From: a virus
Taxonomy: Duplodnaviria; Heunggongvirae; Uroviricota; Caudoviricetes
IMG/VR virus record: IMGVR_UViG_2879754190_000005
Strand: one strand, 5' to 3'
DNA: 46,538 nucleotides
Shown here: positions 16,346 through 18,210 of the stretch, in pieces
Layout of the letters: every line of letters starts with the position of its first letter
Position numbering within the stretch: the stretch's first letter is position 1
Program-made: the position numbers and the translations under genes
The notes under the pieces: generated by a model
What the model saw: only the letters and a program-made list of their open reading frames with translations
The model's database searches: none
What the model was told of the DNA's origin: nothing

Positions 16346-16538
16346 AGGGACACAAAAAGTTTTCTCTTCTAGGACAACTAACCGTAACTTATCGCATCCT
16401 TTCAGGGGCGGGATGACCAATTACAGACACCAAGCGTTCTACTTAAAGTGAATGCTTCCTGTGTGCTCTGGGTCAGTCGATAAGTGAATAGCAATAAGAC
16501 ACAATCATCTTAATTATGGTCTCTAGTCCCTACAGGGG

Positions 16539-16742
16539 CTTAACTTAAAGTTAACTTAAAGACACAATTAAAGATTAACTTATAGTATTACTTAAAGTTA
16601 ACTTAAAGACACAATTAGAGATTAACTTTAAGTATTAAATAAAAGATTTAATTAAAGACCAATTAAAGATTAACTCTAAGGGAATACCTTAAGGGGTGAT
16701 GATATTTATAATAATCAATCACCAAACCTATAGGTCTTCTCT
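16539..16742. repeat. AT-rich tract of TTAACTTAAAG-type short direct repeats
   Basis: CTTAACTTAAAGTTAACTTAAAGACACAATTAAAGATTAACTTATAG... repeated as two imperfect units of about 52 bp, then further TTAAAG variants; no ORF of 60 aa or more on either strand. Confidence 0.7.
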
Positions 16743-17989
16743 TGAAGTGGCACACTGAATTTGGCCACCTGAACAGAGGTGATATGCTCACCTCAGAACA
16801 ACACAGGTGCTCCAATGAAAAAAAGAAATTTTAGCGCAGAGTTTAAACGCGAATCCGCTCAACTGGTTGTTGACCAGAAATACACGGTGGCAGATGCCGC
16901 CAAAGCTATGGATGTTGGCCTTTCCACAATGACAAGATGGGTCAAACAACTGCGTGATGAGCGTCAGGGCAAAACACCAAAAGCCTCCCCCATTACCCCG
17001 GAACAAATTGAAATCCGTGAGCTCAGGAAAAAGCTACAACGCATTGAAATGGAGAATGAAATATTAAAAAAGGCTACCGCGCTCTTGATGTCAGACTCCC
17101 TGAACAGTTCTCGATAATCGGGAAACTCAGAGCGCATTATCCTGTGGTCACACTCTGCCATGTGTTCGGGGTTCATCGCAGCAGCTACAGATACTGGAAA
17201 AACCGTCCTGAAAAACCAGACGGCAGACGGGCTGTATTACGCAGTCAGGTACTTGAGCTACATGGCATCAGCCACGGTTCGGCCGGAGCAAGAAGCATCG
17301 CCACAATGGCAACCCGGAGAGGCTACCAGATGGGACGCTGGCTTGCTGGCAGGCTCATGAAAGAGCTGGGGCTGGTCAGCTGTCAGCAGCCGACTCACCG
17401 GTATAAACGTGGTGGTCATGAACATGTTGCTATCCCTAACTACCTTGAAAGGCAGTTCGCCGTGACCGAACCAAATCAGGTGTGGTGCGGTGATGTGACC
17501 TATATCTGGACGGGTAAGCGCTGGGCGTACCTCGCCGTTGTTCTCGACCTGTTCGCAAGAAAACCAGTGGGCTGGGCCATGTCGTTCTCGCCGGACAGCA
17601 GGCTCACCATGAAAGCGCTGGAAATGGCATGGGAAACCCGTGGTAAGCCCGGCGGGTGATGTTCCACAGCGATCAGGCAGTCATTATACGAGCAGGCAGT
17701 TCCGGCAGTTATTGTGGCGATACCAGATCAGACAGAGTATGAGCCGGCGCGGAAACTGCTGGGATAACAGCCCAATGGAACGCTTCTTCAGGAGTCTGAA
17801 GAACGAATGGATGCCGGTGGTGGGTTACGTAAGCTTCAGCGAGGCAGCTCACGCCATAACGGACTATATCGTTGGATATTACAGTGCACTAAGACCGCAC
17901 GAATATAACGGTGGGTTACCCCCAAACGAATCGGAAAATCGATACTGGAAAAACTCTAACTCGGTGGCCAGTTTTTGTTGACCACTTCA
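16743..17989 (+). mobile_element. IS911 copy B with 3-bp target duplication TCT
   Basis: IRL TGAAGTGGCACACTGAATTTGGCC at 16743, IRR ...GTTGACCACTTCA to 17989; TCT at 16740-16742 and 17990-17992; orfA 16779-17117 (A6G slippery site present), orfB broken at ...GKPGG. Confidence 0.9.
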
Positions 17990-18210
17990 TCTAGGGTCTC
18001 TCTATAGGTCTTCTCTATGGTCTCTCTATAGGTCTCTCTAGGGTCTCCTCTAGGCATTACCCCCAGAAGCTAACTCTATGGCCCTCTATGGTCCTCTATG
18101 GCCCTGTACGTCATTCTTTAGGATGCCCTGTAGTTTCGTATAGCCTGATGCCTAGAGAGACCCTAGAGAGACCCTAGAGAGACCCTAGAGTGGCTCCTAG
18201 AGAGACCCTC
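17990..18210. repeat. Iteron-like arrays with inverted symmetry (TCTCTAGGG / TCTCTATAGG units and their reverse complements)
   Basis: 17990-18053 GGTCTCTCTATAGG/TCTCTAGGG units; 18075-18105 CTCTATGGCCC x3; 18151-18210 CCTAGAGAGACC x4 on the opposite strand sense; continuous with ...CCTATAGGTCTTCTCT at 16725-16742 across the IS911 insertion. Confidence 0.7.

Follow-up and report, generated by a model that had tools for sequence, protein, structure and literature searches.

We have analyzed a DNA stretch of 46,538 nucleotides listed as a tailed virus (IMG/VR record IMGVR_UViG_2879754190_000005; the whole stretch is called here the window), and in particular its non-coding region between positions 16007 and 18213. 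This region follows a tyrosine integrase gene, itself located after a tRNA-Gly(TCC) gene, and contains from left to right three tandem units with T7 promoters, a conserved leader block, an AT-rich tract, a hairpin and several arrays of short direct and inverted repeats (iterons), interrupted by the insertion sequence (IS) IS911. Beyond it a fragment of a Rha-family regulator gene ends at a copy of IS1 (Table 1). The region is the cis-acting, non-coding core of a decayed T7-like-promoter island of Shigella flexneri: the integrase gene lies 5' of the three tandem T7-type promoters, and there is no RNA polymerase (RNAP) gene. The class is not new, since T7-like-promoter islands were first described by Chen and Schneider in 2006, a membership that the first-pass annotation of the window had overlooked; a review cites their work for the sit island of Shigella and E. 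coli, which is the present locus. What is added here to the known class is the homology to phage replication origins, a gene for a predicted HK97-fold protein, the identification of the defence gene RAZR and the match of the promoter types to the local phages.

Each of the three tandem units carries an exact 23-nt T7 class III promoter (TAATACGACTCACTATAGGGAGA), at 16083-16105, 16204-16226 and 16323-16345, all on the + strand; none is expected in shuffled sequences. Since they are identical to the T7 consensus, the three should be strong promoters for T7 RNAP. The closest extended match of the unit in T7 is phiOR (39209-39253, 84% over 45 nt), and the similarity continues past position +6. The primary origin of T7 consists of the promoters phi1.1A and phi1.1B together with an AT-rich region of 61 bp, and phiOL and phiOR act as secondary origins. 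In the window, promoters for the cognate phage RNAP, three of class III on the + strand, likewise point from upstream into an AT-rich region.

The AT-rich tract (TTAACTTAAAG) shows periods of 11, 23 and 47 nt within 16540-16675, the 47-nt unit being present in 2.9 copies, and its A+T content reaches 83% over 100 nt. A permissive blastn search of 16346-16742 against 50,697 phage records gave low-scoring matches, nearly all of them in T7-like phages and at origin positions, the rest being a few staphylococcal chance matches. The tract matched phage IME15 at 6218-6267, between gene 1 (RNA polymerase) and gene 1.1 (84.6% over 50 nt, E = 2e-4), and Tarrare at 4111-4175, again between the RNA polymerase gene and gene 1.1. 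Other matches were located 3' of the left-end promoter, in Kvp1 (494-561), pO103 (433-500) and Serratia phage 2050H2 (433-489). These sites correspond to the T7 primary origin (phi1.1A/B and its AT-rich region) and to the phiOL secondary origin. Local alignments of the tract to six origin regions were compared with 300 dinucleotide-preserving shuffles. The z values were 7.2 for the T7 primary origin, 11.9 for IME15, 8.0 for Tarrare, 9.3 for the Kvp1 left end, 5.0 for phiOL and 4.8 for phiOR, and the observed score was reached by 0 of 300 shuffles in all six cases. When the whole 39.9-kb T7 genome was scanned, the top alignment of the Shigella tract was the primary origin (5919-6005). The tract of a Klebsiella island gave its top T7 alignment at 5930-6000 (score 30 vs a shuffle maximum of 19), and in the first 8.5 kb of KP32 the top alignments fell again directly after phage promoters.

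The alignment reaches up to the ribosome-binding site of phage gene 1.1, which argues for common descent by capture from a phage and not for convergence. At the position of the T7 sequence GACCC the tract carries three copies of GACAC and one of GACCA as sites for the gp4 primase on the bottom strand; we take these pentamers to be the other two canonical gp4 sites beside GACCC. The repeats that the first-pass annotation had noticed in the tract are real and far above chance, and its reading as a T7-type origin finds support in the origin-position matches, the z values of 5 to 12 and the best T7 match at 5919-6005. All this supports homology between the tract and the AT-rich part of T7-group origins, beyond a mere richness in A and T. 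Tracts of the xTAAAG type appear also in Kluyvera and Pectobacterium islands.

Between the promoters and the tract lies the leader block AACCGTAACTTATCGCATCCTTTCAGGGGCGGGATGACCAATTACAGACACCAAGCG, with the motifs CGCATCCTTTCAGGGGCGGGATG and ACAGACACC. It is almost unchanged across the islands of Shigella, Klebsiella, Rouxiella and Edaphovirga, and can still be recognised in Proteus. Neither the 50,697 phage records (blastn) nor Rfam gave any match to it. The 22 metagenome contigs with the block all (22/22) have the same gene order, with a phage-type promoter upstream wherever upstream sequence exists, and the architecture of promoter, block, AT-rich tract and hairpin recurs in them. A small hairpin within the block changes from ATCC/GGAT to TTCC/GGAA in Proteus, with the pairing kept. 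The block is G-rich on the non-template strand (CAGGGGCGGGA), and one speculative role for it would be the stabilisation of an RNA-DNA hybrid in front of the tract. The AT-looped hairpin that follows the tract (GGTGATGATATTTATAATAATCAATCACC) resembles T7 GGTGATTATATTGTATTAGTATCACC (~39331-39356, downstream of phiOR), and with its flanks it aligns in reverse orientation to T7 39276-39365 (65% over 92 nt, E = 0.005). The order of promoter(s), block, tract and hairpin is common to the Shigella, E. coli and Klebsiella islands. The islands of Rouxiella, 'Enterobacteriaceae RIT691' and Proteus follow it more loosely or in part, and in that of Edaphovirga the block is retained.

The IS911 copy is a secondary insertion, foreign to the island. 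It is 99.8% identical to the annotated IS911 of S. flexneri, has terminal inverted repeats and is flanked by a TCT target duplication (16740-16742 and 17990-17992). A contig from another Shigella genome (IMG/VR locus L027) has the same locus without the IS, and the junction of this IS-free allele, with aggtcttctct on its left and agggtctctc on its right, equals exactly the reconstruction made in silico by removing IS911 and one TCT. This allele proves that the region was later split by IS911, as the first-pass annotation had proposed. The IS-free allele has one promoter unit vs three in the window, a shorter AT-rich tract and other iteron numbers (six direct and two to three inverted). In the window, transcripts started at the phage-type promoters would now enter IS911 in the sense direction.

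Table 1. Features of the island remnant in the window, followed by two genes of related loci (locus handles starting with L).
Feature	Position	Strand	Remarks
tRNA-Gly(TCC)	14201..14275	+	ARAGORN and Rfam; last gene of a Met-Arg-Thr-Gly tRNA cluster; 3' end is attL
Tyrosine integrase, 534 aa	14390..15994	+	Pfam Phage_integrase, E = 2e-17
Three tandem units of 120-121 bp	16007..16374	+	3.1 copies of a 121-bp unit; each with one exact T7 class III promoter, rightward
Conserved leader block AACCGTAACTTATCGCATCCTTTCAGGGGCGGGATGACCAATTACAGACACCAAGCG, 57 nt	16380..16436	+	between promoters and AT-rich tract
AT-rich xTAAAG tract	16540..16694	+	homologous to the AT-rich half of T7-group replication origins; amplified in tandem
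AT-looped hairpin/palindrome GGTGATGATATTTATAATAATCAATCACC, 29 nt	16695..16723	.	conserved in Klebsiella islands
Iteron array, left fragment	16725..16742	+	ends in TCT (16740-16742), the IS911 target; 15-nt repeat match 16728-16742
IS911, 1247 bp	16743..17989	+	transposase frame disrupted; secondary insertion
Top-strand iterons (T/G/A)GGTCTCTCTA(T)AG	17990..18054	+	12-nt units of the GGTCTCTCTA(T)AGG type, 5.4 copies at 17990-18052; first 3 nt are the duplicated TCT
CTCTATGGCC repeat	18074..18105	+	3.2 copies; variant CTGTATGGCCC in FT130
Inverted iterons CCTAGAGAGAC	18151..18213	-	~5 copies; GGGTCTCTCTAGG on the bottom strand
Structured leader, long stem-loop	18258..18360	+	just 5' of the regulator gene; in all island subtypes; z = -2.25
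Rha-family regulator, N-terminal fragment	18370..18525	+	~52 codons; Pfam Phage_pRha, E = 6e-10; cut by IS1
IS1, 768 bp	18526..19293	+	with the adjoining IS3-family fragment marks the deletion of the right half of the island
Capsid-like gene	L009 9402-10610; L020 11493-12590; L008 11796-12917		P0121 family (L009)
RAZR	L009 6397-7029		also in L006, L007, L011-L014, L016, L017, L021, L023

Islands of this kind are widespread. Among 5426 complete E. coli genomes, the integrase was found in 379 and the promoter region in 104, and glyU, next to the ETT2 region, is the site of all the E. coli loci inspected. With one genome scanned for each species, 17 more loci were found in other Enterobacterales, belonging to Klebsiella, Citrobacter, Enterobacter, Kluyvera, Buttiauxella, Shimwellia, Proteus, Pectobacterium, Lonsdalea, Rouxiella, Edaphovirga and Serratia. 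Intact islands have a 22-nt repeat of the tRNA-Gly 3' end at both ends and measure 4276-6447 bp, or 7342 bp with an IS5. At 18 of the 21 loci scanned, the interval separating the integrase from the following gene contains one to four T7-group promoters, all on the coding strand; of the three loci lacking a phage-type promoter, two are truncated or degraded.

The specificity of these promoters varies from island to island and agrees with the T7-like phages of the host genus. T7-type promoters are found in E. coli and Shigella islands, whilst single islands of K. pneumoniae ATCC 13883 and E. coli SCEC020007 combine the K11 type (AATTAGGGCACACTATAGGGAGA), the T7 type and a third one. K1F-like (AACTATCACTATAGGG) and T3-like promoters appear in islands of E. 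coli O103, Citrobacter and Buttiauxella, and AATTAACCCACACTATAGGGAGA promoters in those of Proteus and Kluyvera. The K11-type 31-mer is present in 382 Klebsiella phage records (5-12 sites per ~40-kb genome among the records listed), and the K1F-like promoter matches Kayfunavirus and other T7-like phages of Escherichia, Salmonella and Citrobacter, indicating that the promoters of the islands are those of the T7-like phages of the respective hosts. The island of E. coli SCEC020007 (L007) is the Klebsiella-type island of locus L009, with a 100% identical RAZR, the same promoter set and a capsid-like gene 97% identical. This near-identity points to a recent transfer between genera.

The cargo of the intact relatives, as ordered by tblastn, consists of the integrase, in some islands RAZR, the promoters with the module described above, a regulator of the Rha or KilA-N type, a protein of 59-81 aa, in some islands a small membrane protein, a DUF6971 protein and a capsid-like protein. 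The DUF6971 protein has 152-162 aa with a coiled coil and is encoded 5' of the capsid-like gene; it could be a scaffold. The capsid-like protein has 365-402 aa as its open reading frames (ORFs) were called, and ~375 aa in database homologues. Neither it nor the small island proteins received a name from Pfam, PHROG or NCBIfam. It had no sequence match among PDB sequences, and the hhalign probability against T7 gp10 was 0.2%. We have obtained an AlphaFold model from 28 homologues (predicted local distance difference test score, pLDDT, 65.8; predicted template modelling score, pTM, 0.65). Its top Foldseek matches in PDB are all of the HK97 fold, namely encapsulins and the capsids of phi29, T5, PhiM1, Kp7/Kp9 and SaPIbov5 (E = 5e-9 to 1e-6, probability 1.0), and those in BFVD are capsid proteins throughout. 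The protein is thus predicted to have the HK97 (capsid/encapsulin) fold. The gene is lost from the window copy, and islands of the FT130 type have no capsid gene, carrying only KilA-N and the small membrane protein.

In 11 of 22 related islands a DUF4145 gene stands directly after the integrase, and padloc identified it as PD-T7-4/RAZR (E = 8e-99); the window island has no copy of it. According to PMC13017515, RAZR, the new name of PD-T7-4, is an abortive-infection HEPN RNase triggered by the portal proteins of T7 and T3, and it works from its native promoter. Vassallo et al. state only that PD-T7-4 'often overlaps an integrase gene' (PMC9519451). Searched as text, the two articles (PMC9519451, PMC13017515) mention neither the promoters nor the origin-like module nor the capsid-like gene of the element around RAZR.

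In the conserved long stem-loop located 5' of the regulator gene, 23 pairs are predicted, and compensatory changes are seen at 6 of these among 10 islands. It could be a processing site of the RNase III type, as in T7 mRNAs, or an element of translational control.

We consider it most likely that the intact relatives are satellites of T7-group phages which, having no replication protein of their own, would copy the promoter and the origin of the helper. This view rests on their gene content, since they carry a Rha/KilA-N regulator, the small protein, DUF6971, the HK97-fold capsid-like protein and often RAZR. For the window, our preferred reading is that 16007-18213 is the core of an island that would be awakened and, most likely, replicated by an infecting T7-group phage, to which we assign a probability of roughly 0.6. 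The phage RNAP would fire from the three exact class III promoters, and the transcripts would cross the conserved leader into the tract homologous to the phage origin. There, to judge from the homology, the T7 DNA polymerase and the gp4 helicase-primase would adopt the 3' ends of the RNAs as primers, much as they do at phi1.1A/B, phiOL and phiOR. The gp4 pentamers of the tract (GACAC, GACCA) and the opposed GGGTC/TGGTC iterons beyond the hairpin may support lagging-strand priming and synthesis in two directions, the role of the iterons being the least certain part of the mechanism. The same transcripts would express the downstream island genes, and intact members might be packaged in capsids of their own HK97-fold protein with the portal, terminase and tail of the helper.

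Put together, these elements would be satellites by mimicry, a composite proposal that we hold as tentative and with rather less than an even chance of being correct in full. Helper-type promoter arrays would sense the RNAP, a copied origin would amplify the element, small heads made of the HK97-fold protein and DUF6971 would be completed by the helper, and RAZR would be the part that interferes with the helper; within such a satellite, the Shigella region would supply origin and induction. The first half of such a scheme is feasible, since replication and transduction by T7 are known for plasmids provided with its origin, its packaging site and its terminal repeat (PMC13236587, citing Chung & Hinkle 1990). 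The window copy itself is a relic in which at most the promoter and origin steps are possible, and its value is that of a pointer to the family.

Several observations weigh against replication by the helper. The tract starts ~195 nt past the last promoter, vs ~15 nt in T7, and its homology extending to the gene 1.1 ribosome-binding site could mean that it is a passively co-captured leader. Islands with K1F/T3 promoters have no AT-rich tract (maximum 59-64% A+T), hence only a part of the family has the module. Iterons that are limited to one lineage and range from 1 to ~10 copies speak against a strict mechanistic need for them, and the density of primase pentamers in the Klebsiella island, 9/kb, is not significant. 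The capsid-like model is only moderate (pLDDT 65.8, TM ~0.35). Finally, no circular or attachment-site (attP) forms were found in the 22 metagenome contigs, all integrated or ambiguous, or in Logan contigs. One island-sized Logan contig (SRR23613470, L053, 6466 bp) was considered as a circle and rejected: each end is the att core plus 7 nt, a k-1 break and not an attP. Such a break is expected where occupied and empty sites co-occur; it fits excision or a mixture of strains and is not evidence for a circle.

The K1F/T3-type islands L006 (about 8100-8140), L012 and L013 share instead a conserved palindrome, GGATTGTGTTATCACAATTCC, that may be an alternative cis module. The lack of the tract in islands of this type, at least three of which carry the other palindrome, suggests that the origin-like module is one of several interchangeable cassettes.

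The alternative that survives best is that the islands are an expression switch or a defence only. The promoters would only express island genes once a T7-like RNAP is present, or titrate that RNAP, to the benefit of an abortive-infection or interference function, and the tract would be the fossil of a captured leader with no origin activity. We regard this as unlikely, though it deserves to be taken seriously. It would account for RAZR/PD-T7-4, a proven anti-T7 abortive-infection gene, in half of the related islands, for homology running into the gene 1.1 ribosome-binding site, for K1F/T3-type islands that presumably function with no tract, and for FT130-type islands with no capsid gene. However, the RAZR gene is found on the upstream side of the promoters and, according to PMC13017515, is active from its native promoter, so that the phage-type promoters would be unneeded. 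The tandem amplification of the AT unit (2-4x) and its conservation with the block and the hairpin across genera are hard to explain for a fossil. Besides, an integrase with precise att repeats, the spread between genera and the HK97-fold gene point to mobility via particles.

The iterons bear on a second alternative. The iteron arrays, the threefold repeat and the reverse-complement arrays of the first-pass annotation are all present where it had placed them; the inverted arms are up to 17 nt long and 100% complementary to the top-strand array, which contains GGGTC and TGGTC. The window has five direct and five inverted copies, FT130 one of each, and 21AR0133 ~10 direct and none inverted. They are restricted to the E. 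coli/Shigella lineage with T7-type promoters and absent from the Klebsiella and Proteus islands. Iteron type and regulator type (Rha vs KilA-N) showed no clear covariation among the few loci available. T7 primase pentamers reach 23/kb in the IS-free non-coding region, vs 5.8 +/- 2.2 in shuffles (0/300), and still 20.5/kb with each array collapsed to one copy; the density in FT130 and 21AR0133 is similar to that of this region. Our best guess is that the iterons are arrays of primase sites helping to start the second strand.

It had been proposed from the repeats that the region is a genome-end structure or packaging signal. In this explanation, the iterons and their inverted copies would imitate the terminal short-repeat arrays of T7 and serve as a recognition or processing site for the helper terminase. 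Aligned to the T7 left-end short repeats SRL (CTTTAGGTCTGGTCT...), on the reverse strand, they gave z = 4.8, and to SRR z = 3.8 (0/200 shuffles), a modest likeness. The nearest relative of the promoter unit, T7 phiOR, adjoins the right genome end, and packaging of plasmids by T7 requires an origin and a concatemer junction (PMC13236587). Nevertheless, similarity to the terminal repeat itself was absent, both for the iterons (T7, z = 2.9, with 3/200 shuffles equal or better; Kvp1 left end, z = 1.2) and for the 120-bp promoter-upstream unit (z ~0 against the T7 terminal repeat). A blastn search of both against the phages gave nothing relevant. The exact iteron 17-mer was found among 2.9 million viral contigs (IMG/VR) only in Shigella loci, which are prophage-style predictions from Shigella genomes, and in one likely chance match. 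The class II pause signal ATCTGTT had no occurrence in the non-coding regions of 17 islands, only ATTCTGTTT being found at window 18267-18275. Klebsiella and Proteus islands have the capsid-like gene but no iterons, and FT130, otherwise intact, has a single copy. The proposal of a genome end or packaging signal is therefore not borne out, and we judge it improbable.

Other repeats of these islands were observed beside the iterons. In FT130 (L001 12110-12260, 13055-13100), ~13 tandem copies of GATGACCATAGGC directly follow the integrase stop, and three AATCAATACGA repeats lead into a degenerate promoter-like AATACGACTTACTAATAGGAGA. The FT130 repeat segment is absent from the window, where the indel lies between two copies of CAGTAG. 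In 21AR0133 (L008 8620-8790, 9140-9175), repeats of the CTCAGTTTTGAG type occur at least six times in the non-coding region, and their reverse complement CTCAAAACTGAG twice inside the Rha coding sequence; these could be operator sites for the regulator.

The general iteron-type origin, also suggested at first, would be an autonomous plasmid-like one, with iterons binding an island initiator and host DnaA opening the AT-rich DNA. The sequence of an AT-rich tract followed by direct repeats with a period of 10-12 nt (about one helical turn) does recall theta-type plasmid origins. But families of Rep, primase or helicase were not found among the proteins of any island, which are only the integrase, RAZR, Rha/KilA-N, small ORFs, DUF6971 and the capsid-like protein. 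No DnaA box within one mismatch was detected in window 7894-23322, and the units, of 11-12 nt, do not attain the length of classical iterons and vary extremely in number (1 to ~10), all of which makes this origin type very improbable. Lastly, a remnant of an integrated T7-like prophage would bring together integrase, T7 promoters and origin-like sequence, but it is hardly credible given that no other T7 gene appears in more than 40 loci, that elements of 4.3-6.5 kb with exact borders and one small set of genes recur in many genera, and that the capsid-like protein is unrelated in sequence to T7 gp10.

Returning to the window, its copy of the island is a truncated member, as only attL is kept and the right end was deleted by IS1 and the IS3-family fragment. 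No right-hand att copy (attR) is left in the window, and there are no direct repeats at both ends of the 17-24 nt expected in the class. In relatives, the lost right half contains the small ORF, DUF6971, the HK97-fold protein and attR. An S. flexneri cluster of 769 protein sequences is identical to the integrase, which has homologues of 65-97% identity across Enterobacterales. The Rha fragment is 87.8% identical to the full-length Rha of E. coli 21AR0133 (tblastn). The sequence directly 3' of the tRNA-Gly(TCC) gene matches that found 3' of glyU in E. coli islands. The att core differs from the other loci at 3 of 23 positions and all other tRNA-resolved loci use glyU tRNA-Gly(CCC), suggesting that the tRNA-Gly(TCC) site is a secondary attachment site.

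The tRNA cluster with the island (window 13965-14275) lies inside a prophage remnant near sitDCBA. An IS3-family transposase fragment (19294-20173) stands with IS1 in place of the right half. On its 3' side are phage tail-fibre-like ORFs (20201-22996) and then the sitDCBA iron/manganese transporter genes (23197-26646), neighbours that identify the context as the Shigella sit island. A second, distant Rha-like match (38029-38223, - strand, 34% over 77 aa) presumably belongs to the surrounding prophage remnant. The only known RNA families (Rfam) in the window are tRNAs, and the region shows no enrichment in sigma-70 promoters or intrinsic terminators.

T7 is the textbook example of a virulent phage, and no experimentally shown satellite of it or of its enterobacterial relatives was found in the literature searched. 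Full-text searches gave no paper on satellites of T7-like phages (Autographiviridae, Studiervirinae), and none tying RAZR to such an element. Nor do we know of any description of a copy of the helper origin inside an island that encodes a capsid and has no replication protein. If the preferred reading is right, a chromosomal element would be replicated by a lytic phage simply through a copy of its origin, a promoter plus an AT-rich region. Elements tuned to local T7-like RNAPs would be present in ~7% of the complete E. coli genomes and in many strains of Klebsiella, Citrobacter, Serratia, Yersinia, Proteus and Pectobacterium. RAZR would ride on such elements and would have to be seen as part of a conflict between phages and satellites. 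In therapy, where T7-like phages are in wide use, especially against Klebsiella, island-positive hosts could divert infections to satellite production or abortive infection. The origin module would also be a ready-made natural part for T7 phagemids.

The islands of the 2006 description, which share with the window the tyrosine integrase, the tandem T7-like promoters and the lack of an RNAP gene, reportedly numbered 12, with 4-13 kb, an integrase, two to three tandem promoters, no RNAP gene and terminal direct repeats. They are said to occur in enterobacterial genomes and to have a few phage-related ORFs and no recognisable structural proteins, and a dependence on a T7-like phage was reportedly suggested; to our knowledge, no origin homology was shown. 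Compared with the origins of T7-group phages, the island module has in common an RNAP promoter (tandem in the primary origin) leading into an AT-rich tract of the xTTAAG type, the sequences being directly homologous, a gp4 pentamer at the equivalent place and a GGTGAT...ATCACC hairpin like the one 3' of phiOR. Unlike them, it belongs to a bacterial island with no phage replication genes and its function is only predicted. The AT unit is amplified 2-4x, a conserved leader of ~190 nt and non-phage sequence lies between promoter and tract, and iteron arrays flank the module.

T7 phagemids resemble the proposed island in being small origin-bearing DNA copied by the T7 replisome into concatemers and packaged, but such constructs depend also on the packaging site of T7 and on its terminal repeat, neither of which was detected in the island. 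With PICMI (PMC10803314), the PLEs of V. cholerae, P4, PICI and cf-PICI, the islands share a small size, an integrase and att sites, and would share induction by a helper. The PICMI elements measure ~6 kb and are packaged as concatemers, and some known satellites carry anti-helper functions and capsid or size-redirection genes. The islands would differ from all of these in being induced through promoters for the helper RNAP, with several specificities in a single island, and in replicating by means of a copied helper origin with no Rep or primase gene of their own.

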